Origin: a virus | Lineage: Duplodnaviria > Heunggongvirae > Uroviricota > Caudoviricetes | Direction: 5' to 3' (one strand) | Length of the DNA stretch: 45,588 nt | IMG/VR virus record: IMGVR_UViG_2531839665_000023 | In this document: positions 1-18,836 of the stretch, in pieces | How the letters are laid out: each line of letters opens with the position of its first letter | Numbering within the stretch: the first letter of the stretch is position 1 | Position numbers and translations under genes: made by a program | Notes under the pieces: generated by a model | What the model was told of the DNA's origin: nothing | Databases searched by the model: none | What the model saw: the letters and a program-made list of their open reading frames with translations, nothing else

Positions 1-90
1 TTGCCTCCCCCCCGTTGATGGGTAAAATAGCCGCAATTTTTCGTTTTCAACAAGCGCGGCGCGATGCCGCTTACTCAAGAAGAAAGAATT

Positions 91-165
91 ATGACGTTGT
101 CTCCTTATTTGCAAGAGGTGGCGAAGCGCCGCACTTTTGCCATTATTTCTCACCCCAATAATTAA
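91..165 (+). pseudogene. prfC: prfC 5' remnant: native start and first 21 codons of peptide chain release factor 3, then two foreign codons and TAA
   Basis: ATG at 91 translates [24 protein letters not shown]-stop; this is the RF3 N-terminus as recalled, cut just before the GTP-binding P-loop; divergence near 153-160 marks the junction with inserted DNA. Confidence 0.75.
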
Positions 166-318
166 GCCTAAGTTAAAGCTCTTTTACTTTTTCAAAGTCC
201 TTTCAGTTAATTGAGGTTTGGCTGTATAACTCATTTAAATACATTTAGTTATGTGGATTCTTTAATTGAAAATTCTTTCATGTAACTTTAAATCGATCAG
301 GTTGCTTTCATCAAAAAT

Positions 319-381
319 CTGTACATATGCTTGTACATAATGTACAAAGCGGCAGAGGTGTTTTGCGATTTGTACAAGGTG
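319..381 (+). promoter_or_regulatory. Four TGTACA-containing repeats directly upstream of int (candidate Int arm-type sites or int promoter operator)
   Basis: TGTACA at 320-325, 333-338, 341-346, 371-376; near-palindrome TTGTACATAATGTACAA at 332-348; int ATG at 386. Confidence 0.3.
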
Positions 382-385
382 AGTA

Positions 386-1609
386 ATGGCGCTGTCTGAT
401 GCGTGGTTGCGTTCAGTCGTTGGAAAGGAACGTGATAAGGTTTTGGTTAAATCCGATCGTGATGGTCTGTCTGTCAGAGTATCACCGAAAGGTCGCGTAG
501 TGTTCCAATATCGTTATCAATGGGCAGGGAAAGGTGAGCGTCTTGATATCGGAACTTACCCGGCAACTGGATTAAAAGAGGCCAGAGAAGAAGTTATCCG
601 TCTCCGTGGTGAACTCGAGTCAAACCGTAATCCACGATTGGTCAAGCAGGCTGAAAAACGAAAAGCTACTGAAGCCATGACGGTAGAGTCTGTGATCCGT
701 GCCTGGTATGAAGCATATTGTGTAAAAAATAAAAAGGGGTCTGAACAGATACTCCGCTCGTTTGAGCTGCACCTGTTCTCTAAAATCGGGAATATCCCTC
801 ACGATACAGCTACATTGCATGATTGGTTAGAAGTCCTGGAGCCTCTTAGCACTAAGACTCCAGCAATAGCAGACCGATTGCTAATTAACGCAAAGCAGGC
901 CCATGTCTGGGCGTATAAGAGAAAGCTCATTGAAACTCGCCCGCTGTCGGATATCACGGGTAAAGATATGGATATCCGTAAAGGTCAGAAGAAACGGTTT
1001 CTGACACATGATGAAATTAAAATCCTTTATGCTGCGATCGATGGTTCTCGAATGGTTCCTAAATACCGGGCCTTCATTAAACTATTGCTGCATTTTGGCT
1101 GCCGTAGTTCAGAGCTAATTACCGCCAGGGTGGACGATTTTGATTTCATTAATAAAGTATGGACTGTACCACCAGAACGACATAAGACTGGGGCGATAAC
1201 AGGCGAACCGCTAAAGCGGCCCATTATTGAACCGGTTGAAGAGCTTATAAAGTACGCTATCTCTATGAACAATGGTTCCGATATGCTTTTTACTAAGGAA
1301 GGAAGCAGGGAACCCGTTGGTCGGACATCATTGCAGTCGCTGCCTTACAATTTAATGCAGTACGCATGGCGGCGTTTGGGGTATCAATTCCCTCATTGGT
1401 CTCTTCATGATTTGAGGCGAACAGCACGAACAAACTTTTCTGATCTTACTGCGCCTCATATTGCAGAAATAATGCTCGGTCATAAACTGCCAGGGGTATG
1501 GCAGGTTTATGACAAGAGCGATTATTTAGAAGAACAGCGTAAAGCTTACCAGGCATGGTGGGAGAGAGTTGAATCGATCGTTACTCGTACCAGCTCAGAC
1601 TCCAACTGA
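386..1609 (+). CDS. int: Tyrosine site-specific integrase, P4-like family
   Basis: 407 aa; N-terminal arm-binding-type region (LSVRVSPKGRVVFQYRY), C-terminal catalytic motifs including HDLRRTARTN; sits next to the host/phage junction. Confidence 0.93.
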   Translation: MALSDAWLRSVVGKERDKVLVKSDRDGLSVRVSPKGRVVFQYRYQWAGKGERLDIGTYPATGLKEAREEVIRLRGELESNRNPRLVKQAEKRKATEAMTVESVIRAWYEAYCVKNKKGSEQILRSFELHLFSKIGNIPHDTATLHDWLEVLEPLSTKTPAIADRLLINAKQAHVWAYKRKLIETRPLSDITGKDMDIRKGQKKRFLTHDEIKILYAAIDGSRMVPKYRAFIKLLLHFGCRSSELITARVDDFDFINKVWTVPPERHKTGAITGEPLKRPIIEPVEELIKYAISMNNGSDMLFTKEGSREPVGRTSLQSLPYNLMQYAWRRLGYQFPHWSLHDLRRTARTNFSDLTAPHIAEIMLGHKLPGVWQVYDKSDYLEEQRKAYQAWWERVESIVTRTSSDSN

Positions 1610-1709
1610 CAGTTTGTGTTGAGCGAAGAGTGGAAGTTTGTAATGATTGATACAACTGATAAAGGTAATATTTAAATCGAGGTATGTTAATCAATGAGGA
1701 GCAGGTTAT

Positions 1710-2162
1710 ATGAGTCTTTCACGATTTTTATTGAAGATAATTCCATCCTCCTTCCTGAAGGAGGATGATGCTACTCAAAAAAAAAGTAATGAATTTATTG
1801 CTGAAGCCACATTCGGTTCTAACTTAGTCGATGGAGAGCCGACTTGGAAATGGGCTGAAGAACATAAAGATGACCTTGAGGTAATGAAACGATGCTGTGA
1901 TGCTGAACTAATAACAATGAAAAAATGTGGTTTAGTTCCTGCTCCTTATTATTTTGAGCGTGTTGCTATTCTTTCAAGAAAGAATAGTGATTATAGACAG
2001 GAAATATTTTATTGCGAGCAATACATTAAAATGGTTGAGGATTTTTATATTCAAAATGGAACACTAGGAATCGCTGATGTGAGAGAAAGTCCAAGGTTTA
2101 AGAGAATAGTAAAAAGATTGCAGCAAGCCAAAAAACTTTATGCAAAACAAATTTCTTTATAG
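1710..2162 (+). CDS. Hypothetical protein, first gene of AT-rich cargo cassette
   Basis: 150-aa ORF with GAGGAG Shine-Dalgarno about 10 nt upstream; visibly AT-rich versus flanking int; no recognised domain. Confidence 0.6.
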   Translation: MSLSRFLLKIIPSSFLKEDDATQKKSNEFIAEATFGSNLVDGEPTWKWAEEHKDDLEVMKRCCDAELITMKKCGLVPAPYYFERVAILSRKNSDYRQEIFYCEQYIKMVEDFYIQNGTLGIADVRESPRFKRIVKRLQQAKKLYAKQISL

Positions 2163-2203
2163 AAAAGCTCTTTGTCTTGAGAGCGTAAATTATAAGGGGT
2201 GAA

Positions 2204-2686
2204 ATGGGGTATTCATTTGAAATTACGTCTTCAATAGACCTTTTAAACGAACTATCTTGCAGAGTGGATGATTATAATAATAACAATTTATCATCTGGAA
2301 AAGCGGTAGTTTGCTCTATTTTTTGTTGGCACCTCGTTGAGTGGATTTATCATGAATATGATGATCAACTCTCAGAGTTCAAAAGATTAAGAGACTTTCA
2401 AGAATATGTAAAAAAAGCATGTGTTTCGCTATCTTTTATTCAAGCGGTGGCTAATGGGAGTAAGCATAGAGGAATCAATCGATATAAGCCAGCGGTGAGG
2501 TCAACTGAGCGAAAAAATGGAGCATTTTCATCAGGTTTTTCGAACGATTTTGATATCTCCCATTTAGTAATGGAAATAGAGGATGGAAAGTTTGTATACT
2601 TTCAAGAAGAAATAAATAAAGCATTATCCTTTTTGAAAAGTTATTTAAATGGATTAACAAATAATCCATTGATTAATAAAGAGTAA
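2204..2686 (+). CDS. Hypothetical protein, second gene of AT-rich cargo cassette
   Basis: 160-aa ORF with AGGGG Shine-Dalgarno; AT-rich; tandem with 1710-2162; no recognised domain. Confidence 0.6.
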   Translation: MGYSFEITSSIDLLNELSCRVDDYNNNNLSSGKAVVCSIFCWHLVEWIYHEYDDQLSEFKRLRDFQEYVKKACVSLSFIQAVANGSKHRGINRYKPAVRSTERKNGAFSSGFSNDFDISHLVMEIEDGKFVYFQEEINKALSFLKSYLNGLTNNPLINKE

Positions 2687-2707
2687 TTCTATCATCGTCA
2701 GATTTTG

Positions 2708-2746
2708 GGCACAGAGCAGACAGTTAGACTGGTTTGGCTCTGTGCC
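2708..2746. repeat. Perfect 10-bp inverted repeat (GGCACAGAGC / GCTCTGTGCC) with 19-nt loop between convergent transcription units
   Basis: Read directly; lies between cargo gene stop (2686) and the stop of the minus-strand AlpA-like gene (2782); no U-tract on either strand. Confidence 0.5.
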
Positions 2747-2781
2747 ATCTATGTGTCAGCTCATATCGGAGCTGGTTTATG

Positions 2782-2976
2782 TTACTCAATAACTCCCGCA
2801 AACCTGTAAATCTTGCGTGATGCCCATTTATTTGGGCAGGATTTAATATCAGGATCTGGAAAGTCTGGCCTGTATTTCTGGCCAGTTCTCCTGTTTACGC
2901 TGTTCCAGCGAAGAACTGTCGATACTGAAACTCCACAGAAGTTGGCGACTTGTTTAGTTGTCATTAAGTTGTTCAT
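2782..2976 (-). CDS. AlpA-family small HTH DNA-binding protein (putative excisionase/regulator)
   Basis: 64 aa; TTKQVANFCGVSVSTVLRW HTH followed by FPDP...W motif typical of AlpA/Xis-like proteins; last gene of leftward early operon. Confidence 0.65.
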   Translation of the reverse strand: MNNLMTTKQVANFCGVSVSTVLRWNSVNRRTGQKYRPDFPDPDIKSCPNKWASRKIYRFAGVIE

Positions 2977-3596
2977 TACTTTACCTCCTGCGGCGGCTCC
3001 GGTAGCGGCATCCAGTGGGTTACTTTCGATGCCGGTTCTTCCACATCGTCAGTAACTGCCCACCATTTGTTTCTCGACCAATCGTAATACCCTTCGAAGG
3101 TATCGCACTCAGTCCAGCCGTAAGACTTCCCCCAACACCAAACATACTGTTTATCGTCCGGCATTCGCTCACTACAGCTTATCCAACCATCCGGAGTTAC
3201 CGGAGAGTTGCCCGACAGCTCGTTCAACTTGTAAGTCTGGCTTACAGGTTCGGTACCATGAAGCATGGCGGCGCGGCAGGCGTTCCAGCCTTCATCAAAG
3301 CCGACTATGCCATTATTTAAAGACGGACGAACATCTGGCACCATCGGCACTGGCTTGGCTATATATAGCGGCTGAACATACCAGCCCTTTGATAACCAAC
3401 GGTCAGCAATGTTTTTACTCCGTGTTATTGCCGGAATACCTAAGCCATTGTCTGAATGCAGCCATGCCACCGGTTCTGCTTCCAGCGATACCAAAGCAAT
3501 TTCATAAGCACGGCGCTCAATATTGTCTCGCACATCCAGACTGCCTATGCGCTCTTTGATTTCTTTAATCAGTTCTTTGTCGGTAAATGTGGTCAT
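2976..3596 (-). CDS. Phage early protein with C-terminal DUF551-like domain
   Basis: 206 aa; Trp-rich C-terminus ending HWMPLPEPP; translationally coupled to neighbours. Confidence 0.7.
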   Translation of the reverse strand: MTTFTDKELIKEIKERIGSLDVRDNIERRAYEIALVSLEAEPVAWLHSDNGLGIPAITRSKNIADRWLSKGWYVQPLYIAKPVPMVPDVRPSLNNGIVGFDEGWNACRAAMLHGTEPVSQTYKLNELSGNSPVTPDGWISCSERMPDDKQYVWCWGKSYGWTECDTFEGYYDWSRNKWWAVTDDVEEPASKVTHWMPLPEPPQEVK

Positions 3597-3958
3597 TATG
3601 CCCCTGCCTCCGGTGCCTTTGGTATTACTGCCCAGTGAGTGATATTGACGTTTTCAAGATCCCCGACCTGAAATGTCCACTGCCATTCTCCGGTTTCTTT
3701 TTGTCCCCAGGTGTACCAGAGAGAACGCCAGCCAATTAGCCAGCCTTCTCCGTTAGCATCGAATAACAAAACACTTTCATTTGCTGGTGGCAGTTCAGTT
3801 GACACTGATATTACTTTGTTTTCCTGTGCTGCACATTTAGCTTCAAGCGCATCGAATTTACGCACCAGGTATTCAGCATCTGTTTCATTTACTTTCAGAT
3901 CTCGCGGTACACATCTCCCACGAAGAAACCCTTCCATTTCGAAAACATTCATGCGCAT
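3596..3958 (-). CDS. Phage early protein, DUF551-like (YfdS-like)
   Basis: 120 aa; Trp-rich C-terminus ending HWAVIPKAP; same operon. Confidence 0.65.
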   Translation of the reverse strand: MRMNVFEMEGFLRGRCVPRDLKVNETDAEYLVRKFDALEAKCAAQENKVISVSTELPPANESVLLFDANGEGWLIGWRSLWYTWGQKETGEWQWTFQVGDLENVNITHWAVIPKAPEAGA

Positions 3959-4485
3959 TTGCGTAACTCCGATAACTCGTTAAAGCGTTCCATAAACATC
4001 CCGTAGGCATGGCCCGGTGCCAGTGGAATCACGTTGAACATCTCTGTTGCCGGGATACCTTCCAGTACAGGCCAGAAAGAGCCATCATCAAGCCCGAGAT
4101 CGCGGCGTTCGGTTGCCAGCATGATGAGATCGGCATATTTCACGGGCGTACTCATAACTGGGGGTAATCCGTATTTCTCACGGATTACGGAGTCTATTTT
4201 TTCTTCCATTTGTTTATAGTCAGGAAGAAGGCGTTTCAGTGGTGCGGGAATGTCCTGGCAATACGCTTCTGTTGCATCATGCATTAACGCTTCAAAAGCA
4301 AATTCCTGCGGCACCAGCTGGCTGCAAAGAACCGCATGTTGGGCGACGCTGTAGAAGTGCGAAAGATGACCGGCAAAGCGACAGATATTTGAAAGGGAAA
4401 CCGCGATATCGTTAATATCGATGTCGTCTTTATTTATCCTGTCATAATAAAAATGCTTCCCGGAAAAAGTTTTAATAAATGACAT
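3949..4485 (-). CDS. HD-domain phosphohydrolase (YfdR-like)
   Basis: H...HD metal-binding motifs (SVAQHAVLCSQL, MHDATEAY); start trimmed to the ATG preceded by GGAGAA, giving 178 aa. Confidence 0.8.
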   Translation of the reverse strand: MSFIKTFSGKHFYYDRINKDDIDINDIAVSLSNICRFAGHLSHFYSVAQHAVLCSQLVPQEFAFEALMHDATEAYCQDIPAPLKRLLPDYKQMEEKIDSVIREKYGLPPVMSTPVKYADLIMLATERRDLGLDDGSFWPVLEGIPATEMFNVIPLAPGHAYGMFMERFNELSELRKCA

Positions 4486-4612
4486 TTTGTTCTCCACGTA
4501 TATGCGCTGCACCGCGCTGAGTTTGGGTAAAAGGAAGCCCTCACCATCCGGTGATTATTGAGTTAATTACGTTTCCATAAATGCCCCCGCAGGGGCATTT
4601 GCAGTAATGAAA

Positions 4613-5437
4613 TCAGGCGGTGAAAGTACCAATAAAGGTTTCTACTTTGCTGTCTTTGAATTTCTCAACAAGCAGATCACGAAATTCGTTAGCCATATCT
4701 TCCTGCACTGCTTCCAGCTGAATAATGCGCAGAACCAGTACAGGACGATCGCCAGTGATAATGCTGAGGCGTAATTTAAACGGACGTTCTTTCAGACCTT
4801 CAAACGGAACGCATTTAAATTCAAATGCCACTGGCATAATGTCTTTGGTCTTCGCTTCGACAGATTCCATCAGGGAGCGTTTGCCGCTGAAGTCATTATC
4901 TTCAAAATCAGCGGTCTGGTTTGCTTCAATCGTGATTTTACGGATTGCCGCAGCCGCTTTTGTTGCCTGAATGGCGTCACCATTAGCATCAAAGCCCACA
5001 AGGTAGTCGGCCCAGTCTTCAATCCATTCTGCCAGTGATTTCTGGGAGTTACGCTCGCCGTTAACAGACAACAGGGCAGAGAACGGTGCTGTCTTTTTCA
5101 GTTTGAGAGTGGCGGTGTTATCTGCGTGACCTGGTTCATCAATAGTACCCAGGTTAAGCACACTGACGGCACGCATATTATCAGCATCGATAAAGCAGCG
5201 GGTGCCTTCATCTGCAAGATCTTTAGAATAACGGGTAAAGTCATCGATGCTGGCAGTGGAAAGCGCGCCACGGAAACGGAAGCGATTTAAATTAAATTTT
5301 TCCAGATCATGAATGCGGAAATTCTCAGGCAATGCCACAGCATCGGCACCAATCTTACTGATAATTTCATTAACACCCTGAGCAGAAATAAGGGCATGGA
5401 TTTGATTAATTGCGGTTGCGTCTAAGTTCTGAGACAT
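4613..5437 (-). CDS. DUF2303-family phage early protein (YfdQ-like)
   Basis: 274 aa; size and sequence character match the CPS-53 YfdQ-type protein as recalled. Confidence 0.7.
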
Positions 5438-5502
5438 AATAAGTCCTCACTATATAAAGATATTCAGTGATGAGATAAATAATCAGTTAATTAAGAACGA
5501 TA

Positions 5503-5865
5503 TTAATGACCTGCTGCGCGTAGTTTTCCGTCAGGTTCACCGGCAAGAGTCAGTAATTGTCCCTGGTCTTCCTGCAGAATAGTCAGGCGACCACCGCGAT
5601 TGACATACATCGGCGTTTCGGTGGTGTCTTCTTCGGAAATTTTCCCGCGGTTAGTCGGGCGAACATATGAGAGTTTGTGTTTGATTTTCACACGGTTCTC
5701 ATCAAATGGTTCGATTTCCAGGTTGAGTGAGACCTTACCTTTGGTTTTCGTGTTCATCACACCGGAAGCGACTTCACTGAGAACTGCGCCGATTTTGGTT
5801 TCAAATACGCCGCCGTCCAGCTCCCCGATAAATGCCTGCACATCAGTACTGCGTTCGCTAGCCAT
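5503..5865 (-). CDS. Hypothetical early-left protein (first gene after PL leader)
   Basis: Track ORF trimmed to the ATG at 5865 preceded by GAGGAG; 120 aa. Confidence 0.65.
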   Translation of the reverse strand: MASERSTDVQAFIGELDGGVFETKIGAVLSEVASGVMNTKTKGKVSLNLEIEPFDENRVKIKHKLSYVRPTNRGKISEEDTTETPMYVNRGGRLTILQEDQGQLLTLAGEPDGKLRAAGH

Positions 5866-6000
5866 TTTGCTGCTCCTCATCATATCGACCCTGCAAGGTC
5901 GGTTGGTTTCTCCACAAAACAGAGAAGAACACCTGCGGTGGCAGCCGCCCGGATGGATTGGGTTATGAACCCGTCGTCCGGTGATGCTCTTCTCTGTTTT

Positions 6001-6048
6001 GTAAAAAGAGCGGTACCAGCCGGAAGCAAGTGTACAAACTGGTACCGC
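6001..6048 (-). terminator. Candidate intrinsic terminator in PL leader (tL-like)
   Basis: Minus strand: GCGGTACCAG - 19-nt loop - CTGGTACCGC followed by TCTTTTT. Confidence 0.5.
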
Positions 6049-6370
6049 CAAAGCAGTGGCTGTTGTGGTGGGGTTGTCACTCAGGCGTATGGTCAACCTG
6101 ACAATCCGGTGTCCTCAACGGGGAAAGAGTAACCCCGCCATACTTACCGCCGCGCCATTTCGCGGATTACCACAACGCTGAGAGCACTTAGCCAGTTACG
6201 GCACCACACTTTGTCGCGGCTCCATAAATGCCCTCATCGTTGCACCCTGGTCTCTTCCCAGGCGTCAAACCGGATCGCCACGCTGGTTAGGCGTCTTATC
6301 AGCATCATCATTGACTTGCACATTCCGGCTACCTGGTTTGTTTGCCCGAGCAAGAAGTGGATTGTCCCCT

Positions 6371-6451
6371 TTAACGTCCCCAGACCGCTAACGACGCATG
6401 TGCCATACGCCGTGTTACAACCAAATTTTGTTTGAATCTTGCCTGCCTCAT
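6371..6451 (-). CDS. Candidate 26-codon Arg-rich mini-ORF at the start of the PL transcript
   Basis: Minus-strand ATG at 6449-6451 about 10 nt downstream of the predicted PL start; encodes MRQARFKQNLVVTRRMAHASLAVWGR; weak ribosome-binding context. Confidence 0.2.
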   Translation of the reverse strand: MRQARFKQNLVVTRRMAHASLAVWGR

Positions 6452-6466
6452 GTTTCTTTTGGATAC

Positions 6467-6494
6467 ATTATGTACCTCATAGGTACATTGTCAA
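6467..6494 (-). promoter_or_regulatory. PL-like early-left promoter
   Basis: Minus strand TTGACA (6489-6494), 16-nt spacer, CATAAT (6467-6472); operator palindrome occupies the spacer. Confidence 0.55.
6471..6487. promoter_or_regulatory. OL operator, 17-bp palindrome TGTACCTCATAGGTACA
   Basis: Same half-sites as the two OR palindromes at 7226 and 7276. Confidence 0.55.
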
Positions 6495-6496
6495 GT

Positions 6497-6520
6497 ATAA
6501 AAAAACCTGCCGAAGCAGGT
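6497..6520 (-). terminator. Intrinsic terminator downstream of cI
   Basis: Minus strand hairpin CCTGC-TTCG-GCAGG followed by a U-run (A-run on plus strand) directly after the cI stop. Confidence 0.7.
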
Positions 6521-6533
6521 TCATAAATATTGA

Positions 6534-7208
6534 TTAGGCCTTTATTGTGTATCTTCTTGGTTTTCCCGAGAAAATCACTGTACCAATTATAGAGCAATTA
6601 CCGTTAATCTTAATGTAAGGCTCAGGCCAGTTTGGGTTTAATGCTTTGAGATAACGCTGTGTTCCATCTTCTATCAATCGCTTGAAGGTGGTTTCGCCTG
6701 TATCGTGCATCAATGCAATAACGTCGTCACCGTGGCAGGCAGGGACTTCGGGATCAACAAAAATCATGTCTCCAGGGCGGTACTCATCAATCATTGAATC
6801 ACCAATCACCCGCAAGATATAAGTCATTTCGCCACAGGGTACAGGGCAGGGATACGTTTCTGCTGTGCTCAAATCAACCTCAGAATAGCCAACTTCTTTC
6901 CATGCTCCGGCCTGTACCCATGATATGACAGGGACTAACGTTATTTGTTTGTTAGTGATTGAAACATCAGGTTTTTTTGTGATGTTCGTTGTCTGGTGTT
7001 CTTGATCAAGCCATCCGACAGGCAGGTCGAAACATTTTTCGATGTGCCGTGCCATGCTGTCACCGATATTTTTAGTAGCGCCATCCCCCATAAACCTGCT
7101 GGTTTGGGTTGGCTCGCGATCAATCATGGTGGCAAAGGATGAATTTCCGCCAACACCATCTCTCAGTTTTCTGGCGTTAGACCGCCGGATGTCATGGATT
7201 GTTTTCAT
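6534..7208 (-). CDS. cI: CI-type prophage repressor, HTH plus S24 LexA-like autopeptidase
   Basis: 224 aa; N-terminal HTH; QAGAW (Ala-Gly cleavage site), GDSM serine and downstream lysine (TFKRL). Confidence 0.9.
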   Translation of the reverse strand: MKTIHDIRRSNARKLRDGVGGNSSFATMIDREPTQTSRFMGDGATKNIGDSMARHIEKCFDLPVGWLDQEHQTTNITKKPDVSITNKQITLVPVISWVQAGAWKEVGYSEVDLSTAETYPCPVPCGEMTYILRVIGDSMIDEYRPGDMIFVDPEVPACHGDDVIALMHDTGETTFKRLIEDGTQRYLKALNPNWPEPYIKINGNCSIIGTVIFSGKPRRYTIKA

Positions 7209-7225
7209 AACGAAATTAAAACCTT

Positions 7226-7242
7226 TGTACCGATAAGGTACA
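7226..7242. promoter_or_regulatory. OR operator, 17-bp palindrome TGTACCGATAAGGTACA
   Basis: Between divergent cI and cro starts; overlaps predicted PRM -35. Confidence 0.55.
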
Positions 7243-7248
7243 AGTATC

Positions 7249-7276
7249 TTGAAGGTTCATTTCAATCATGTAATAT
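7249..7276 (+). promoter_or_regulatory. PR-like early-right promoter
   Basis: TTGAAG (7249-7254), 16-nt spacer, TAATAT (7271-7276), operator immediately downstream. Confidence 0.5.
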
Positions 7277-7292
7277 GTATACCGGAGGTACA
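7276..7292. promoter_or_regulatory. OR operator variant TGTATACCGGAGGTACA
   Basis: Shares GGTACA half-site; covers the predicted PR start site and the cro ribosome-binding site. Confidence 0.5.
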
Positions 7293-7298
7293 TATTGT

Positions 7299-7499
7299 AT
7301 GAAAGCGTATTGGGACTCTTTAACCAAAGAACAGCAGGGCGAGTTGGCCGGAAAAGTTGGCTCAACACCTGGCTACTTACGGCTGGTTTTCAATGGTTAT
7401 AAAAAAGCCAGTTTTGTGCTGGCGAAAAAACTTGAGCAATGCACGTCAGGTGCAATTACGAAATCTGACTTAAGACCGGATATCTATCCGAAAGATTAA
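7299..7499 (+). CDS. cro: Cro-like small HTH regulator
   Basis: 66 aa from the ATG preceded by GGAGGT; divergent from cI across the operator region. Confidence 0.75.
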   Translation: MKAYWDSLTKEQQGELAGKVGSTPGYLRLVFNGYKKASFVLAKKLEQCTSGAITKSDLRPDIYPKD

Positions 7500-7530
7500 C
7501 AGAACACCTTCAATTTTTAACCACAGAACG

Positions 7531-8094
7531 ATGAGGCTAACCGTGGGTAAGTATCACTGGAAAGTAGAAAAACAGCCTGAGTGGTACGTGAAAGCTGTCA
7601 GAAAAACTATCGCAGCGTTGCCGGGTGGTTACGCTGAAGCAGCTGACTGGCTGGATGTAACAGAGAACGCATTATTTAACCGCCTTCGTGCCGATGGCGA
7701 TCAGATTTTCCCGCTGGGATGGGCAATGGTTTTACAGCGTGCGGCTGGCACTCACTACATTGCGGATGCTGTCGCACAGTCTGCTGGTGGGGTGTTCGTA
7801 TCGCTTCCTGAAATTGAGGAAGTAGAGAACGCCGATATAAACCAGCGCCTGCTGGAAGTCATCGAACAGATCGGGAATTACTCAAAGCAGATTCGTTCGG
7901 CAATCGAAGATGGGGTCGTGGAGCCACACGAGCAGACAGCAATTAATGATGAGTTGTATCTGTCAATTTCGAAGCTCCAGGAGCATGCAGCACTGGTCTA
8001 CAAAATCTTTTGCGCTCCAGAAAAGAGTGACGCCCGCGAGTGTGCAGCTCCGGGCGTCGTGGCGTTTTGTGTCTGTGGAGAAACTAACGCATGA
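7531..8094 (+). CDS. Putative CII-like early regulatory protein
   Basis: 187 aa; position directly after cro; family assignment from memory only. Confidence 0.45.
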   Translation: MRLTVGKYHWKVEKQPEWYVKAVRKTIAALPGGYAEAADWLDVTENALFNRLRADGDQIFPLGWAMVLQRAAGTHYIADAVAQSAGGVFVSLPEIEEVENADINQRLLEVIEQIGNYSKQIRSAIEDGVVEPHEQTAINDELYLSISKLQEHAALVYKIFCAPEKSDARECAAPGVVAFCVCGETNA

Positions 8095-8927
8095 ACAGTT
8101 TAACGGCAAATAACCGTTTGTCGCAACAGCTGGTGGTCAGTGTCGCTGAACACCTGTTGTTACGGCATGAATGCAGATTACCAAATCACCTGGCTGTAAG
8201 TAACCACAGAGAACTTTACCTGACTGTGGGGGGCGAGTTGTGCGGGAACTTAACCGCTGGTTTCGTGACGGAAGAGGGCTTTATGTCCATGTTATTCGTT
8301 GGGAACCAGAAACACAGCGCGTTATCTATCTTCGCAAAGACTACCCGCATGAGTGCTTTAGTCCTTTGTGGAAATTCAGGCGTGATTTTGTTGAGTGTGA
8401 AGGACCACCAGCACATTGATTCTGCCATTCCGGGACGTTACACTGTTCAGGCACCTTATAAAGCGGGTGCCGGGATTGGCGTCCTGGAATTGATCAAGGC
8501 GATATATGACGCGCCAGCGTCTTTTTTATCGTCCGCATTTGCTCACATCAAAGTTATGGTGGGCTGGGCGGGGGCATCGAAAGATGCGCCGGTTTCCTTG
8601 ATCACCGGTTACGCCAACCCCGTTCAGTTCACCACCAGCGAAATTGGCGTTTCCGGTGGTGGAAGTATTTCACCGATCAAGGAGGCTGCCATCATGGCTA
8701 CTGTCCCAGCCCTCACTCGTCTGAATGATGAAGACTTACATAAACTCAGTTATGTAACAACTGCACTACGTGCTCTGCGCAAGGTAACTCTTTCGGATCC
8801 GCAGGCGCATCAGGTTCTGGTAGAAACCCTTCTTAACTTGCAGGCTGAACGTATCCGTTTGGTGGATAAGGCTAATTTTCATATTCACCGTCTCCTGAAT
8901 ATCAGCGGAGGGCATCGTCATGCTTAA
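8091..8927 (+). CDS. Hypothetical protein; ORF of doubtful extent
   Basis: Track ORF; N-terminal third is low-complexity and an alternative frame (8240-8419) reads more protein-like; C-terminal part more convincing. Confidence 0.35.
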   Translation: MNSLTANNRLSQQLVVSVAEHLLLRHECRLPNHLAVSNHRELYLTVGGELCGNLTAGFVTEEGFMSMLFVGNQKHSALSIFAKTTRMSALVLCGNSGVILLSVKDHQHIDSAIPGRYTVQAPYKAGAGIGVLELIKAIYDAPASFLSSAFAHIKVMVGWAGASKDAPVSLITGYANPVQFTTSEIGVSGGGSISPIKEAAIMATVPALTRLNDEDLHKLSYVTTALRALRKVTLSDPQAHQVLVETLLNLQAERIRLVDKANFHIHRLLNISGGHRHA

Positions 8928-9156
8928 TCCGTTGAGCCTCAATATTCGCCGTTTACTTCAGCGTAAAAAAACATCAATTCCTACAGTTGGGCAGTGGTAC
9001 ACCACGCCTGCAGGGCATGTTCTACGTGTTAGCCTGGTTGACCGTGAATGTCAGAAAGTGATTTGTGAACCGCTGGGCCGTAATTACCGCGTCAGTATGC
9101 CGCTTATAGCCTTTCGCTCCGGAAAAAACACGAAGCATCTCGGAGGTGCTGCATGA
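8920..9156 (+). CDS. Hypothetical small phage protein
   Basis: 78-aa ORF coupled to the downstream replication gene. Confidence 0.45.
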   Translation: MLNPLSLNIRRLLQRKKTSIPTVGQWYTTPAGHVLRVSLVDRECQKVICEPLGRNYRVSMPLIAFRSGKNTKHLGGAA

Positions 9157-9959
9157 GTATGGAGCTGATGGTTAAAGCGATGAAAATTCGAGTGGGAAAT
9201 CCATTGCGAAAACTGGTTCTGATTAAGCTGGCTGATAATGCCAGCGATCAGGGCGAGTGCTGGCCCAGCTATCAGCATATCGCTGATCAGTGCGAGATTA
9301 GCAAACGTTCTGTGATGAATCATATTGCGGCCCTCTGTGAGTCCGGGCTGGTAAAAAAAGTCACCAGGAAAGGTGAAAAAGGTAACTCAAGTAATATCTA
9401 TCTTCTTCATCTTGATGGTGCAGGAGATTCACTAGGGGGTAGTGCAAATAATTCACTATCTGGTGCAGCAAATTCACCAGGTAGTGCAGGAGTTGCACCA
9501 GGGGGTAGTGCAGGAGATTCACCCAGAACCAGTCACTCTTTTGAACCAGTCAATGAACCAATAGCTGTTGGTGCATCTGCTGATGAGTCTGTGCGAGTTC
9601 GTTCAAACCGACCGGAATACTCTCCGGAGTTTGAGCAGGCATGGCTGGCATATCCCAAACGTGCTGGTGGCAATTCAAAATCTGCAGCCTTCAAAGCCTG
9701 GAAAGCCCGTTTGAATGAGGGGGTAAAACCCGAAACCATGCTGGAAGGTGTGAAACGCTACGCGGGCTGGGTATCTGCGATGGGTAACAGCGGCACACAA
9801 TTTGTGAAACAGGCTGTCACGTTCTTTGGTCCGGATCGTCATTTCGAAGAATCCTGGGAAGTTCCTGCGGTATCTGCAGCCAGACGCGAGGACCCGTACT
9901 TCAAAGCCAGTTACGACAACGTGGACTACAGCCAGATCCCGGCAGGATTCAGGGGGTAA
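9153..9959 (+). CDS. Replication initiation protein, O-like, N-terminal winged HTH
   Basis: HTH segment (SYQHIADQCEISKRSVMNHIAAL), Gly/Ser-rich linker encoded by iteron-like repeats, C-terminal replication-protein-like region. Confidence 0.75.
   Translation: MSMELMVKAMKIRVGNPLRKLVLIKLADNASDQGECWPSYQHIADQCEISKRSVMNHIAALCESGLVKKVTRKGEKGNSSNIYLLHLDGAGDSLGGSANNSLSGAANSPGSAGVAPGGSAGDSPRTSHSFEPVNEPIAVGASADESVRVRSNRPEYSPEFEQAWLAYPKRAGGNSKSAAFKAWKARLNEGVKPETMLEGVKRYAGWVSAMGNSGTQFVKQAVTFFGPDRHFEESWEVPAVSAARREDPYFKASYDNVDYSQIPAGFRG
9418..9525 (+). repeat. Five imperfect ~21-bp direct repeats (iteron-like) inside the initiator gene; candidate origin
   Basis: GGTGCAGGAGATTCACTAGGG / GGTAGTGCAAATAATTCACT / GGTGCAGCAAATTCACCAGGT / AGTGCAGGAGTTGCACCAGGG / GGTAGTGCAGGAGATTCACCC, followed by GAACCAGTCA repeats. 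Confidence 0.6.
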
Positions 9960-9961
9960 TC

Positions 9962-10450
9962 ATGAGTCTTTTGAATGAAGTTCAGAAATTCATTGAAGCC
10001 CATCCGGGGTGTACTTCCGGAGACATTGCGGATGCTTTTGCTGGTTACTCACGGCAGCGCGTTCTGCAGTCAGCAAGCAAGTTACGTCAGAGTGGGCGTG
10101 TGGCTCACCGTTGTGAAGGGGATACACGCAGACATTTCCCGCGCCTGACTGAGAGAGCACAGGAGCCGGAACCACAACCAGTTCGTGAAACCAGACCTGT
10201 GCGCAATTTCTATGTCGGCACTAACGATCCCCGTGTGATTTTGTGCCTGACCCGCCAGGCTGAAGAACTAGAGTCCAGGGGCTTATACCGTCGTGCTGCA
10301 ACGGTGTGGATGGCGGCATTCCGTGAAAGCCACTCCCAGCCAGAACGAAACAATTTTCTGGCGCGTCGTGAGCAGTGTTTACGGAAAAGCAGCAAGCGCG
10401 CTGTATCGGGTGATGAGTGGTATCTGTCAGGGAATTACGTGGGGGGTTAA
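9962..10450 (+). CDS. Putative regulator with PerC-like C-terminal region
   Basis: 162 aa; C-terminal segment LESRGLYRRAATVWMAAFRE resembles the PerC/Pch family as recalled. Confidence 0.45.
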   Translation: MSLLNEVQKFIEAHPGCTSGDIADAFAGYSRQRVLQSASKLRQSGRVAHRCEGDTRRHFPRLTERAQEPEPQPVRETRPVRNFYVGTNDPRVILCLTRQAEELESRGLYRRAATVWMAAFRESHSQPERNNFLARREQCLRKSSKRAVSGDEWYLSGNYVGG

Positions 10451-10776
10451 TGACGACGTTAACTCAATGCCAGCAGCAGGTGCTGGATATGCTGATTTCT
10501 TATCAGAAAGAACGTGGTTTCCCGCCAACCAATCAGGAGGTGGCAGCCATGCTGGGATACCGTTCGGTGAATGCAGCGGTGGAGCATCTTCGCGCACTGG
10601 AGAAAAAAGGCGTCATCACGATAAAGCGTGGCGTGGCCCGGGGTATCACGCTTCATACCACAGTGAAGGACGACGACAGCGAGGCAGCCGGGATTATCCG
10701 CGCACTGCTTGCCGGTGAGGAAAACGCCAGGCTGCGTGCAACTCACTGGTTACATGAGAGGGGCCTGAAAGTATGA
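10450..10776 (+). CDS. LexA N-terminal DNA-binding-domain homologue lacking the S24 peptidase domain
   Basis: 108 aa from the ATG at 10450; LTQCQQQVLDMLISYQKERGFPPTNQEVAAMLGYRSVNAAVEHLRALEKKGVI aligns with the LexA winged-helix domain; no Ala-Gly/Ser/Lys cleavage module. Confidence 0.75.
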   Translation: MTTLTQCQQQVLDMLISYQKERGFPPTNQEVAAMLGYRSVNAAVEHLRALEKKGVITIKRGVARGITLHTTVKDDDSEAAGIIRALLAGEENARLRATHWLHERGLKV

Positions 10777-11162
10777 AGCTTATCCTGCCTTTCCCGCCCA
10801 GCGTGAACACTTACTGGCGACACCCTAACAAAGGGGCGTTTGCAGGTAAGAGCCTGATAAGCGCGGCGGGGCGAAAATTCCAGAGCGCGGCGTGCGCAGC
10901 AATAGTTGAGCAGTTACGTCGTCTGCCGAAACCAACGTCGGCACCTGCTTCAGTGGAGATCGTGTTGTTTCCTCCGGATAACAGGATCCGCGATCTGGAT
11001 AACTATAACAAGGCGCTGTTTGACGCCCTGACCCACGCAGGTGTGTGGGAAGACGACAGCCAGGTGAAAAGAATGCTGGTGGAGTGGGGACCGGTTATCC
11101 CGGAAGGGAAGGTCGAGATCACTATCAGTAAGTACGAGAAAACGGCGGGTGCAGCCGCCTGA
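10773..11162 (+). CDS. rusA: RusA Holliday-junction resolvase
   Basis: 129 aa; RDLDNYNKALFDALTHAGVWEDDSQV catalytic-region signature. Confidence 0.9.
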   Translation: MKLILPFPPSVNTYWRHPNKGAFAGKSLISAAGRKFQSAACAAIVEQLRRLPKPTSAPASVEIVLFPPDNRIRDLDNYNKALFDALTHAGVWEDDSQVKRMLVEWGPVIPEGKVEITISKYEKTAGAAA

Positions 11163-11181
11163 TTAAGAGGAGAAACGAAGT

Positions 11182-11868
11182 ATGAATAATCTGATGGTCA
11201 TTGATGGTATTGAAGTTCGTCGTGATGCTTATGGACGTTACAGCCTGAACGATCTGCATCGTGCCGCAGTAGCATCTGGTGCAAATGCCAGAACGAAGGA
11301 GCCGGGAAAGTTTCTTTCCAGCCAACAGACTGTTGAACTTGTTCGGGAATTGACCGATACCCAAAATTTGGGTGTCGGTCCGGTTAATACAGTTCGTGGT
11401 GGTCCTAAGCAGGGGAGTTATGTCTGCAAGGAACTGGTGTATGCCTATGCAATGTGGATCAGTCCGTCATTCCATCTGAAGGTGATCCGTACTTTCGATA
11501 TGGTAGTCAGTGCACCGGAAAAATTATCCGGGCAGGCTGCTGACAAGATGCAGGCAGGTGTGATTCTGCTGGACTTTATGCGTCGGGAGTTAAACCTGTC
11601 TAACTCATCTGTGCTTGGGGCCTGTCAGAAACTCCAGGAGGCTGTTGGCTTACCGAATCTGGCACCGCGCTATGCCATTGATGCTCCTGCTGATGCACAC
11701 GATGGCTCAAGTCGCCCCACGCTGTCGCTGAGTGCACTGCTGAGGCAGTATGGTATCCGCCTGACGGCTAATCAGGCATATCACCAGATGGTGAAGCTGG
11801 GGATCGTTGAACAACGCGAACGATACAGCCGTACCGCGATTAACAACATCAAAAATTCTGGTCGCTGA
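11182..11868 (+). CDS. KilA-N domain protein (antirepressor-like)
   Basis: N-terminal KilA-N-type sequence (YSLNDLHRA...VYAYAMWISPSFHLKVI). Confidence 0.75.
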   Translation: MNNLMVIDGIEVRRDAYGRYSLNDLHRAAVASGANARTKEPGKFLSSQQTVELVRELTDTQNLGVGPVNTVRGGPKQGSYVCKELVYAYAMWISPSFHLKVIRTFDMVVSAPEKLSGQAADKMQAGVILLDFMRRELNLSNSSVLGACQKLQEAVGLPNLAPRYAIDAPADAHDGSSRPTLSLSALLRQYGIRLTANQAYHQMVKLGIVEQRERYSRTAINNIKNSGR

Positions 11869-11991
11869 CGGCGAAAGGCTGCATGTTCGGCAAGAACATC
11901 ACCAGTCCTGCAAATCCGCGCGAGACGCAGCCGCATTTCTTCGAATCCCGATTCCCTGAGCTGTTAAAGCTGCTCGATACCGTTCATTGAG

Positions 11992-12987
11992 GTGACCGTG
12001 AGAGCACTACTGACCCCTGAAATTGCCCCGCGTATGGGGATCGTATTGTTCAGGCCAGGTTCAGAGCTGATGCCCCTGTTTATGCAGGGGCGTGTCCTGC
12101 TGGAGCCTGAGCCGGAACGTTATTCATCTTTCGCCAGTGGTGCCGTTCCGGCGGCATCACAACCGCTGGCGGATGATCCTGCCGTTCGGGCCGTGTTCCG
12201 CAATGAGGCAGTGATCCGTCGTGCTGGTGGCGTGGAATGCCTTGAAAGCTGGTTACTTCGTGAAAAGGGCTGTCAGTGGCCTCATTCCGACTGGCACAGC
12301 GAGAACATGACCACAATGCGACACGCGCCGGGCGCAATCCGTCTGTGCTGGCACTGCGATAACCAGCTGCGTGATCAGTTCACGGAACGGCTGGAGTCAA
12401 TGGCAACGGATAACTGTGCCCGCTGGGTGTTGTCTGTCGTGCGTCGGGATCTCGGTTTTGATGACAGTCACGTTGTGACAATGCCGGAACTGTGCTGGTG
12501 GCTGGTTCGTAATGATTTGGCGGATGCCTTACCGGAAAGTGCAGCCCGTAAGGCACTGAGATTACCGAAGCCTGTTGTGCCATCTGTCACCCGGGAAAGT
12601 GACCTTGTGCCTTCGGTTCCTGCCACCAGCATCATCCAGGATAAAGCGAAAAAGGTGCTGGTGCTGAAAGTGGATCCGGAGTCGCCGGAGTCTTTTATGT
12701 TACGCCCCAAACGTCGCCGCTGGGTTAATGAAAAGTACACGCGCTGGGTTAAGACGCAGCCGTGCGCATGTTGTGGAAAGCCAGCTGATGATCCCCACCA
12801 CCTGATAGGCCACGGTCAGGGTGGAATGGGTACAAAAGCGCATGATCTCTTTGTGTTGCCTTTGTGCAGAAAGCATCACGACGAGCTGCATGCGGATACC
12901 GTGACATTTGAAGAGAAGTATGGCTCCCAACTGGAGCTGATATTTCGTTTTATCGATCGTGCGCTGGCAATTGGCGTACTGGCGTAA
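11992..12987 (+). CDS. DUF968-family nin-region protein
   Basis: C-terminal Cys/His cluster (CACCGKPADDPHHL...CRKHHDELH); GTG start per track. Confidence 0.7.
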   Translation: MTVRALLTPEIAPRMGIVLFRPGSELMPLFMQGRVLLEPEPERYSSFASGAVPAASQPLADDPAVRAVFRNEAVIRRAGGVECLESWLLREKGCQWPHSDWHSENMTTMRHAPGAIRLCWHCDNQLRDQFTERLESMATDNCARWVLSVVRRDLGFDDSHVVTMPELCWWLVRNDLADALPESAARKALRLPKPVVPSVTRESDLVPSVPATSIIQDKAKKVLVLKVDPESPESFMLRPKRRRWVNEKYTRWVKTQPCACCGKPADDPHHLIGHGQGGMGTKAHDLFVLPLCRKHHDELHADTVTFEEKYGSQLELIFRFIDRALAIGVLA

Positions 12988-13000
12988 GTGGAGAACGAGC

Positions 13001-13753
13001 ATGAACCTTGAAGCCTTACCAAAATATTACTCCCCAAAATCTCCAAAATTGAGTGATGCCGCACCGGCGACAGGCTCAGGTGGTTTAACGATTACGGATG
13101 TGATGGCTGCGCAGGGGATGGTGCAGTCGAAAGCACCGCTTGGGTTTGCCTTATTCCTGGCAAAAGCTGGCGTTCAGGATCCTCAGTTTGCGATTGAAGG
13201 TCTGCTCAATTACGCGATGGCACTGGATAACCCGACATTGAACAAATTGAGTGAAGAAATCCGGTTACAGATCATCCCTTACCTTGTGAGTTTTGCCTTT
13301 GCTGATTATTCCAGGTCTGCGGCAAGTAAGGCTCGCTGTGAGCCTTGTGCTGGTACTGGATTTCATAATGTATTGCGCGAAGTGGTGAAATACTCCAGAA
13401 GCGGGGAGTCTGTTATCAAGGAAGAGTGGGTGAAGGAACTATGTCAGCATTGTCATGGTAAGGGAGAAGTCAGCACAGCGTGCAGAGGGTGTAAGGGTAA
13501 AGGTATTGTCCTGGATGAAAAAAGGACCCGGCTTCATGGCGCGCCTGTTTATAAGATTTGTGGGCGTTGCAATGGAAACCGGTTTAGTCGTTTACCAACG
13601 ACACTGGCGCGGTGTCATGTCCAGAAGCTGGTACCAGACCTGACTGATTATCAGTGGTACAAAGGATATGCAGATGTCATTGATAAACTGGTTACAAAGT
13701 GCTGGCAGGAAGAAGCATATGCTGAGGTGCAATTAAGAAAAGTGACGAGATAA
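13001..13753 (+). CDS. Q-like late-gene antiterminator
   Basis: Multiple CxxC pairs (CEPCAGTG, CQHCHGKG, CRGCKGKG, CGRCNGNR); last nin-region gene before the lysis region; start at ATG with GGAG upstream. Confidence 0.6.
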   Translation: MNLEALPKYYSPKSPKLSDAAPATGSGGLTITDVMAAQGMVQSKAPLGFALFLAKAGVQDPQFAIEGLLNYAMALDNPTLNKLSEEIRLQIIPYLVSFAFADYSRSAASKARCEPCAGTGFHNVLREVVKYSRSGESVIKEEWVKELCQHCHGKGEVSTACRGCKGKGIVLDEKRTRLHGAPVYKICGRCNGNRFSRLPTTLARCHVQKLVPDLTDYQWYKGYADVIDKLVTKCWQEEAYAEVQLRKVTR

Positions 13754-13784
13754 ATGATTTTCGCCGAAGATGGCGACGTAATGC

Positions 13785-13813
13785 TTGCATTTTTCAAAAA
13801 ATATGGATAAAAT
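13785..13813 (+). promoter_or_regulatory. Candidate late promoter PR' (-35 TTGCAT, 17-nt spacer, -10 TAAAAT)
   Basis: Read directly downstream of the Q stop; the -10 overlaps the IS903 target duplication. Confidence 0.4.
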
Positions 13814-13817
13814 TCTT
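13809..13817. repeat. IS903 target-site duplication, left copy (AAAATTCTT)
   Basis: Identical 9-mer at 14875-14883. Confidence 0.85.
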
Positions 13818-14874
13818 GGCTTTGTTGAATAAATCGAACTTTTGCTGAGTTGAAGGATCAGATCACGCATCTTCCCGACAACGCAGACCGTTCCGTGGCA
13901 AAGCAAAAGTTCAAAATCACCAACTGGCCCACCTACAATAAAGCCCTCATCAACCGTGGCTCCATAACTTTCTGGCTGGATGATGAAGCTATTCAGGCCT
14001 GGTATGAGTCAGCAACACCTTCTTCACGAGGCAGACCTCAGCGCTATTCTGACCTTGCCATCACGACTGTGCTGGTCATTAAACGCGTATTCAGGCTGAC
14101 CCTGCGCGCTGCGCAGGGCTTTATTGATTCCATTTTTTCTCTGATGAACGTTCCGCTACGCTGCCCGGATTACAGCTGTGTCAGCAGGCGGGCAAAGTCG
14201 GTTAATGTCAGTTTCAAAACGTCCACCCGGGGTGAAATCGCACACCTGGTAATTGATTCCACCGGGCTGAAGGTCTTCGGTGAAGGCGAGTGGAAAGTCA
14301 AAAAGCATGGCCAGGAACGCCGCCGTATCTGGCGTAAGCTGCATCTCGCCGTTGACAGTAAAACACATGAAATCATCTGCGCTGACCTGTCGCTGAACAA
14401 TGTTACGGACTCAGAGGCCTTCCCCGGGTTAATCCGGCAAACCCACCGGAAAATCAGGTCAGCCGCCGCCGATGGCGCTTACGATACCCGGCTATGTCAC
14501 GATGAACTGCGGCGTAAGAAAATCAGCGCGCTTATCCCTCCCCGAAAAGGTGCGGGTTACTGGCCCGGTGAATATGCAGACCGTAACCGTGCAGTGGCTA
14601 ATCAGCGAATGACCGGGAGTAATGCGCGGTGGAAATGGACAACAGATTACAACCGTCGCTCGATAGCGGAAACGGCGATGTACCGGGTAAAACAGCTGTT
14701 CGGGGGTTCACTGACGCTGCGTGACTACGATGGTCAGGTTGCGGAGGCTATGGCCCTGGTACGAGCGCTGAACAAAATGACGAAAGCAGGTATGCCTGAA
14801 AGCGTGCGTATTGCCTGAAAACACAACCCGCTACGGGGGAGACTTACCCGAAATCTGATTTATTCAACAAAGCC
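13818..14874 (+). mobile_element. IS903 (IS5 family) insertion sequence, intact
   Basis: 1057 bp; 18-bp terminal inverted repeats GGCTTTGTTGAATAAATC at both ends; single transposase ORF; flanked by 9-bp direct repeats. Confidence 0.93.
13850..14818 (+). CDS. IS903 transposase (DDE, IS5 family)
   Basis: 322-aa track ORF entirely within the IS; sequence character matches IS903 transposase as recalled. Confidence 0.9.
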   Translation: MKDQITHLPDNADRSVAKQKFKITNWPTYNKALINRGSITFWLDDEAIQAWYESATPSSRGRPQRYSDLAITTVLVIKRVFRLTLRAAQGFIDSIFSLMNVPLRCPDYSCVSRRAKSVNVSFKTSTRGEIAHLVIDSTGLKVFGEGEWKVKKHGQERRRIWRKLHLAVDSKTHEIICADLSLNNVTDSEAFPGLIRQTHRKIRSAAADGAYDTRLCHDELRRKKISALIPPRKGAGYWPGEYADRNRAVANQRMTGSNARWKWTTDYNRRSIAETAMYRVKQLFGGSLTLRDYDGQVAEAMALVRALNKMTKAGMPESVRIA

Positions 14875-14883
14875 AAAATTCTT
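14875..14883. repeat. IS903 target-site duplication, right copy (AAAATTCTT)
   Basis: Identical to 13809-13817. Confidence 0.85.
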
Positions 14884-14925
14884 TCAACGATGGGCTTTAT
14901 ATACCCGACGTTAAGAAAAAGTAGA

Positions 14926-14950
14926 AAACCCGCTGATGAGCGGGTTTTTG
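14926..14950 (+). terminator. Intrinsic terminator (tR'-like)
   Basis: CCCGC-TGATGA-GCGGG followed by TTTTT. Confidence 0.7.
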
Positions 14951-15234
14951 TGCTTTAAATAGGGTAATAGAGATGTTGAATCTCATTCCGGGATTCATGT
15001 TTGTTTACTTATTATTTATCGGGTGACTTTGCCTGATGTTTAAAATGTTTTCTTCCAGTACTATGTCCCTAGATACAATGAGTCTGCATATTACATTATT
15101 AGCAGAGCTATTACGGTCAAAGTACAGCATAAGCTTTTAAAGCCAATCAACCAGTCATCAAGACAGACGGGGTTATTCATGAAAACTCTCCATGTTTGAT
15201 TCGATGGGGCCTGAAATTAAAGCTTTAATATAGC

Positions 15235-16245: not shown

Positions 16246-16268
16246 AACCCGCTCAGGCGGGTTTTTTA
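16246..16268 (+). terminator. Intrinsic terminator
   Basis: CCCGC-TCAG-GCGGG followed by TTTTTT. Confidence 0.7.
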
Positions 16269-16326
16269 TTATCTGCTTTAAATATGTTATTAAAATATAA
16301 AAAATACTTGTTACGAATAAAATCAA

Positions 16327-16931: not shown

Positions 16932-16935
16932 TCCA

Positions 16936-17808: not shown

Positions 17809-18836
<1,028 letters not shown>

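Follow-up and report, generated by a model that had tools for sequence, protein, structure and literature searches.

The locus studied here lies at the left end of a 45,588-nt stretch of phage DNA (the window, by which we mean the whole stretch analysed), and the question it raises is what becomes of the host gene prfC, which encodes RF3, when a phage integrates into its 5' coding end. A sequence-only reading had held that the lysogen lacks RF3, with the proviso that the other junction might supply a new promoter and an N-terminal coding segment fused to the remainder of prfC. Our preferred reading, to which we give a probability of about 0.88, is that the left end of the window is the attL of a lambda-like prophage in prfC, and that a replacement start carried in the phage arm rebuilds an in-frame RF3 gene at attR. 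All four forms of the attachment site were read for this purpose: attB in K-12, attL in the window, attR in strains RM13514, 538 and JB2, and attP in phages Ayreon and cdtI.

The left junction and the displaced 5' end of prfC

Window position 1 is the base immediately following the yjjG stop codon. Alignment with the empty locus of K-12 MG1655 showed identity over the yjjG–prfC spacer and the 5' end of prfC (window 1–155), and this identity stops directly after the 14-bp segment ATTATTTCTCACCC, which encodes the I-I-S-H-P of the GTPase G1 motif (prfC codons 18–22). When translated, window 91–165 (ATG ACG TTG ... CAC CCC AAT AAT TAA) retains 22 native prfC codons at attL, i.e. the start and 21 more. 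Phage DNA begins at the third base of Pro22 (position 156), where it makes a synonymous CCG>CCC change; two Asn codons and then TAA follow, giving a stub ORF of 24 codons that relatives in RefSeq annotate as an incomplete CDS. The int ORF begins exactly 220 nt past the stop of this stub, on the same strand.

These observations bear out much of what had been proposed from the letters alone: a prophage in the 5' coding end of prfC, the native start and first 21 codons followed by two foreign codons and a stop, and a P4-like integrase 220 bp downstream. The attachment identity segment, previously placed within about 91–155, was narrowed to 14 bp by the comparison with the unoccupied K-12 locus. 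The 23-mer around this core occurs only once in the window, so the right junction must lie outside it; neither a second copy of the core nor any further prfC sequence was found in the window, and its last 234 bases belong to the prophage gene ydfK. Coordinates are collected in Table 1.

Table 1. Features of the window at and beyond the left prophage junction
Feature	Position	Strand	Basis or remarks
Native yjjG–prfC intergenic region	1..90	+	Identical to K-12; native RBS region, candidate promoter
Displaced native prfC 5' end at attL, 24-codon stub	91..165	+	Alignment with K-12
Host stretch (codons 9–17) with imperfect homology to the phage replacement segment	115..141	+	8 differences, all synonymous
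14-bp core ATTATTTCTCACCC, attL copy of the crossover/identity segment	142..155		Common to attB, attL, attR and attP
P' arm of the attachment site	156..385	+	Four TTGTACA sites at 331–377; candidate int promoter at 218–245
Lambda-like prophage body, continuing to attR ~1.1 kb past the window	156..45588		Annotation of near-identical relatives
Tyrosine integrase, 407 aa, SXT cluster of the IntSXT/P4-like group	386..1609	+	Pfam, alignment
Candidate excisionase, 64 aa	2782..2976	-	phrog_1553, E = 1.6e-35

The right junction in relatives of the prophage

As the window ends ~1.1 kb short of the right junction, attR was read in strain JB2, in O145:H28 strain RM13514 and in isolate 538. JB2 is 100% identical to window 25001–45588 and 99.9% identical over the left 25 kb, where it has extra IS elements; no record matched the full 45.6-kb window along its whole length. 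Past the point at which the window ends, JB2 carries ynaM/ynfT and a dinI-like gene, which a spacer of 220 bp separates from a full-length prfC, with the core ~1127 bp beyond the window's last base, and the layout is the same in RM13514 and isolate 538. In all three, a phage-borne ATG and 21 codons are in frame with prfC from codon 23 onwards; the DNA upstream of the core is that of the phage, and from the core onwards it is identical to prfC of K-12.

The hybrid RF3 is predicted to be a protein of 528 aa that differs from native RF3 only in residues 2–8, which precede the P-loop strand, and is one residue shorter. It scored 1089.6 bits against the RF3 equivalog model TIGR00503 (cut-off 467) and aligned with the solved E. 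coli RF3 (2h5e) from the Glu-Val-Ala segment to the C-terminus. The hybrid ORF was intact in every occupied genome examined, and this includes RM13514, whose prophage has lost its early/regulatory region by an IS3-associated deletion.

Inspection of the right junction for the rest of prfC and a phage-borne start, the check that the sequence-only reading had asked for, thus found both in three relatives. The coding segment of its proviso is what we see in JB2, RM13514 and isolate 538, and since attR carries an in-frame, full-length gene for an RF3 of 528 aa in these strains, the claim that the lysogen lacks RF3 is unsupported at the gene level. For the prophage of the window itself, we infer by reading across from identical and near-identical genomes that its right junction rebuilds prfC in the same way.

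The arrangement is common. Among 5,426 complete E. coli genomes, 700 matched the attR query, made up of the phage arm and prfC, over at least 80% of its length, and 701 matched the attL query (the window's first 400 bases, at least 80% of the length matched); about 13% of complete E. coli genomes (700/5,426) therefore carry prfC with such a phage, and the median was one prfC copy per genome.

The replacement segment in free phages

In phage Ayreon, which was grown on K-12, and in phage cdtI, attP is contiguous and holds the replacement segment. In both it reads TTGTACATAATCAAAGAGACARCAATT-ATG ACA AGC CTT TTG GCC GCA GAG GTA GCG AAA AGA AGA ACC TTT GCM ATT ATT TCT CAC CCC AAT AAT TAA, with int starting about 220 bp past this mini-ORF of 23 codons, which mimics the 5' end of prfC. 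The part that serves as replacement comprises an RBS-like region, the ATG and 21 codons. The P arm of ~230 bp is essentially invariant across the four phage and prophage copies compared, with the ATG and the reading frame conserved in each.

Over codons 9–17 (EVAKRRTFA) the phage segment and the native gene differ at eight nucleotides in six codons, and all of these differences are synonymous. When sets of eight substitutions were drawn at random, none of 200,000 kept the peptide, which indicates that the phage segment has evolved as RF3 coding sequence. Residues 2–8, the part that does differ, also vary among the native RF3 proteins of different genera. The Arg-Arg pair is written as tandem AGA AGA in the replacement (L001 32033–32038 / L004 2493–2498) and as CGC CGC in the native gene. 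AGA codons are rare in E. coli, and with a tandem pair so near the start the hybrid RF3 might be translated less well. We also came across NZ_CP019281.1 (hits H110 and H124), a small circular record of 33.7 kb labelled as a plasmid, in which the P arm (19907–20131) lies ~230 bp before the integrase gene (20362–21582), as it does in attP; the record probably represents a prfC phage in an excised or plasmid-like state.

On the preferred reading, a tyrosine integrase of the SXT/cdtI cluster inserted the phage at the 14-bp core in the GTPase P-loop codons (18–22) of prfC. The sequences show that integration splits the gene. The native promoter, RBS and 22 codons stay at attL, where a stop supplied by the phage closes the remnant into the 24-codon stub 220 bp upstream of int. 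Recombination at the core gives prfC the first 21 codons of the mini-ORF and leaves the last three (NN*) with the native stub. Hybrid RF3 would then be made, in working form, from a promoter presumed to lie somewhere in the phage arm.

The integrase and its binding sites

The integrase matches PF13356, PF22022 and PF00589 (Arm-DNA-bind_3, Phage_int_M and Phage_integrase), the architecture of the P4-like/IntSXT group, and an alignment of 17 sequences showed its catalytic residues R240, K267, H341, R344, H366 and Y375 all to be conserved. It is 98.0% identical in amino acid sequence to the integrase of cdtI and 98.3% to that of Ayreon; identity to the R997 integrase is 39% over the full length (E = 2e-89). 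The cdtI-phage integrase has been grouped with SXT and related elements in a single prfC-targeting cluster by Smyshlyaev et al. (PMC8138268), and the window's enzyme agrees with the cdtI type in its domains and catalytic set, in its homology and, as read in relatives, in the core at both junctions and the replacement start.

A 6.5-kb stretch of Ayreon contains nine TTGTACA sites, against 0.94 expected by chance, and every one of them falls in attP (five on the P arm, four on the P' arm); a count of nine was not attained in any of 200 shuffles. The window has six such sites, four of which cluster at 331–377. To judge from lambda-type integrases with an arm-binding domain, the repeats on both arms are probably arm-type binding sites of the integrase. 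A 22-bp element, TGTACATATGMTTGTACATAAT, is present both upstream of int and upstream of the replacement prfC start. It was considered as a shared promoter and rejected, the spacing of its hexamers being only 10–11 nt; paired arm-binding sites are the better reading of this repeat.

Between int and the candidate excisionase gene there are two ORFs on the plus strand, 1710–2162 (150 aa) and 2204–2686 (160 aa). Neither had a Pfam or PHROG match; both encode hypothetical proteins that are conserved in RM13514 and isolate 538, and they are possible cargo genes.

Promoters and expression of the rebuilt gene

In the native spacer, the best candidate for the prfC promoter is a sigma-70 match, TTGCCT-16-TAAAAT (window 1–28), with a score of 11.3 that lies above the 95th percentile of the background; after integration it faces the stub and int. 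A scan of the window for terminator-like sites found none between stub and int, so the host prfC promoter may read into int, and in lysogens it probably does read through the stub in this way. The best candidate for a promoter of int itself within the P' arm is TTGGCT-16-TACATT.

Neither a consensus scan nor a weight matrix gave a convincing sigma-70 promoter on the phage arm (230 bp) in the direction of prfC: the best match, TTTTCT-17-CATAAT, 17 nt before the ATG, scored 6.3, where the background had a median of 5.7 and a 90th percentile of 8.7. The test is a weak one, as the corresponding arm of R997 scored only 9.9 and that of Gifsy-1 only 8.6, and because these arms also score modestly we do not take the null result to mean that a promoter is absent.

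As prfC is not essential, an intact ORF alone is no proof of use, and the first alternative to be weighed is that the ORF is rebuilt and the gene is effectively silent, the native promoter and RBS being lost and no adequate phage promoter replacing them, so that lysogens would be RF3-poor, a milder version of the claim that they lack RF3. This would fit the phage arm's lack of an above-background sigma-70 match on the prfC strand, and the phage genes that flank attR (dinI-like and ydfK) are on the strand opposite to prfC, so no read-through from them is to be had. Ogura et al. 2007, who described how a Stx1 phage in O103 prfC changes a short N-terminal part of RF3, left the expression of the hybrid gene undecided (PMC2323221); Bobay 2013 names prfC among disrupted genes (PMC3603311); and our literature search found no paper demonstrating expression of a phage-derived hybrid RF3. 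Against this, the replacement segment has diverged by synonymous changes only and does not vary across phages; all occupied genomes examined have an intact ORF, even RM13514, where an IS3 insertion and deletion have degraded the prophage; a promoter for prfC is reported to come with the homologous SXT module (PMC8409611); and the scan that found none here is of low power. A silent gene is on balance improbable in our view.

A more specific proposal is that integration swaps promoters, with the host prfC promoter passing to int and RF3 depending on a weak, unconventional promoter in the phage arm that overlaps the TTGTACA sites and is near two LexA boxes. Two LexA-box-like sites (CTGT-N8-ACAG) do occur in the promoter of the dinI-like gene (L001 31796–31855, the same in L087), on the opposite strand, ~150–200 bp upstream of the rebuilt prfC start and beyond the right end of the window. 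We consider such a swap rather unlikely. If true, it would mean that the RF3 level, termination fidelity and quality control are prophage-set in ~13% of E. coli genomes, and that the RF3 level could shift with integrase occupancy or SOS induction.

Integrase relatives in other genera and at paralogous GTPase genes

One genome per species was scanned, which gave 80 loci with relatives of the integrase. A prfC stub with the common end was found 217–255 bp upstream of int at 33 of the 80, and a looser look added a 34th (L056, ending IISRP); these loci take in nearly all integrase relatives of at least ~51% identity. Their hosts include Trabulsiella, Pantoea, Xenorhabdus, Serratia, Pseudomonas, Shewanella, Marinomonas and Burkholderiaceae, among others, and the breakpoint in prfC is common to the 34 loci from these many genera. 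An in-frame stop no more than nine codons past the crossover was present in 32 of the 33 motif-matched prfC stubs (L006–L083), many of which are related loci; in the window the stop follows as NN*. Such an early stop may be selected, keeping the displaced stub short. In Xenorhabdus hominickii, a single genome holds three identical copies of a related integrase locus (L040, L041 and L042; 48% identity), each with an upstream ...LISHP* remnant that has no prfC N-terminus; they may represent a multi-copy element or secondary sites.

More distant integrase relatives (44–50% identity) lie ~195–225 bp downstream of truncated stubs of two other translational GTPase genes, and the cut in these stubs falls on codons homologous to those of the prfC core (ATY ATY KCN CAY, the I-I-A/S-H of the G1 motif). 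From the E. coli N-termini, we take the stubs at ten loci (L034, L043, L048, L049, L055, L059, L060, L074, L075 and L082) to be lepA-like and those at two more (L072 and L076) to be typA/bipA-like; the hosts are mostly Halomonas, Acinetobacter and Moraxellaceae. The reconstructed attP of Gifsy-1 (L091/L092) likewise has a mini-ORF, here one mimicking lepA, MKNIRNFSIIAHIDN*. It seems that this clade of integrases has moved between paralogous P-loop sites, each time with a matching 5' mimic; a literature search found no paper linking the prfC and lepA/typA sites in this way.

These comparisons bear on a second alternative, in which the prfC-like segment would be a passive souvenir of imprecise excision from another bacterium and not a maintained adaptation. 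The segment does resemble a natural RF3 N-terminus, having variable residues 2–8 and then a conserved stretch, as the native stubs of other genera do; a capture origin, however, is compatible with a present-day function. All four of the phage and prophage copies that were compared keep the ATG and frame, and the design is met again, in other sequences, in R997/SXT and, at lepA, in Gifsy-1 (MKNIRNFSIIAHID), a recurrence that argues for maintenance. We give this alternative little chance of being right. That the stub is a leftover of local duplication or rearrangement, unrelated to site-specific integration, is hardly credible and already refuted, for beyond the bare presence of a truncated gene copy nothing speaks for it, while attL, attR, attB and attP share one 14-bp core and recombine as expected, 34 loci from many genera share the breakpoint and the adjoining integrase is intact with all its catalytic residues.

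The prophage body

Gene calls for the prophage were those of the RefSeq annotation of relatives 99–100% identical to the window, except that Int and Xis were called by Pfam and PHROGs. The gene set comprises early genes, an antiterminator, lysis genes, terminase, portal, capsid, tail and tail fibres, a DNA invertase and ydfK. The element has the make-up of a lambda-like temperate siphovirus: int/xis, a repressor region, antiterminator, lysis genes, a terminase–portal–capsid–tail series and homologues of lambda J, H, L, U and G-T. Free phages with the same att–int module exist. Neither the annotation of near-identical relatives nor the list of window ORFs contained stx or cdt genes, and a tRNA-targeting island was dismissed as an identity for the element, there being no tRNA genes in the window.

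Several further features were recorded in the body. The early region has plus-strand Rfam matches to isrK (8451–8527, 64 bits) and to C4 antisense RNA (8552–8639, 82 bits); such a pairing is typical of P1/P7-style antirepressor control in some lambdoid prophages. Leaders of the cspA thermoregulator type (15587–16026 and 19053–19458, plus strand, 157 and 117 bits) precede prophage cold-shock genes, loci at which relatives annotate cspB/cspF/cspI-like genes. A Pin/Gin-type DNA invertase (44385–44975, minus strand; phrog_125, E = 6.6e-69) comes directly after the tail-fibre and assembly genes, and an Rfam IS009 match (44055–44253, plus strand, 221 bits) lies inside the tail-fibre-assembly gene; this suggests an invertible tail-fibre (host-range) segment. 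An ORF of 564 aa (37160–38854, minus strand), antisense within the tail-tip gene gpJ (36230–39628, plus strand), is most likely spurious.

Implications for annotation

The main import of these findings concerns annotation. RefSeq shows a truncated 'hypothetical protein' at attL, while prfC is rebuilt at attR with a phage N-terminus, and surveys can list prfC as disrupted by prophages, as one has (PMC3603311). Roughly one complete E. coli genome in eight has such a rebuilt prfC. Expression of hybrid prfC at the native level is reported for SXT, but not for phages according to Ogura et al. 2007.

Comparison with known systems

Phage cdtI is said, from work by Asakura in 2007, to reside at E. coli prfC, and SXT/R391 elements, by the account of Hochhut & Waldor in 1999, reportedly occupy the 5' end of the gene. 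The site is an established one for cdtI, Stx1a and Stx2c phages (PMC2323221, PMC10132054, PMC8138268), and the SXT precedent, in which the element gives prfC a new promoter as well as a new N-terminus, is well known (PMC8409611, PMC5812530).

The closest likeness is with the lambdoid prfC phages (cdtI, the Stx1a/Stx2c phages of O103 and CC119, Ayreon, 2H10 and PhiR63_1), whose integrases are 97–98% identical in amino acid sequence to that of the window. In Ayreon and cdtI, the two in which attP was read, the replacement prfC 5' segment and P arm are identical. These phages have the same lambda-like structural genes and differ in cargo or mosaic regions only; between the relatives of the window, it is the tail-fibre and early regions that vary. 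GenBank records of 27 Stx1a/Stx2c phages have the same integrase, and in the one whose annotation was read these 14 bp are given as the insertion duplication.

R997, deposited as a Proteus mirabilis plasmid, appears to be an SXT/R391-type element, because it has the xis–int pair, the core at the start of its record and a matching junction in P. mirabilis H63. It shares the target gene and the core with the phage: its record opens with ATTATTTCCCACCCTGA, which overlaps the 14-bp phage core, and its other end brings its own replacement start and N-terminus for prfC, in a sequence unlike that of the phage. That start is preceded by two GTGTACAAA repeats, which are of the TGTACA type. (The AIIIISHP read across the circular junction of R997 was rejected as real sequence; it is an artefact of record closure, part of the core being written twice.) In P. 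mirabilis H63 a native prfC stub is followed by element sequence, and the SXT stub ends ...SHPDA, the SXT crossover lying a few bases further downstream than that of the phage. The int and prfC genes are convergent in SXT/R391, with xis placed between int and the core; int of the window phage reads away from the core. The SXT/R391 family's integrases are ~99% identical (PMC2791158), and that of the window, at 39% identity to R997 Int, falls outside the family. The window element is a phage and not a conjugative element like SXT/R391: no conjugative transfer genes were present in near-identical annotated relatives, which have terminase, portal, capsid, tail and lysis genes.

Gifsy-1 of Salmonella, which sits at the 5' end of lepA, is the nearest parallel at another gene. 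Its integrase is 46.9% identical to that of the window and has the same orientation, ~225 bp from the core, and the core occupies the homologous codons (I-I-A/S-H) in the gene for a paralogous translational GTPase; it differs in its target, lepA and not prfC, and in its arm repeats, which are of the TGGACAC type. The dusA-targeting elements are further removed, IMEVchUSA3 having a different target gene and being an integrative island mobilised by IncC plasmids where the present element is a phage; for these elements, expression has been shown experimentally, at a reduced level (PMC8409611). Integration into prfC with replacement of the RF3 N-terminus has already been published for Stx, Cdt and SXT elements and is ordinary, and the window contains another member of the prfC phage group, apparently an intact one.
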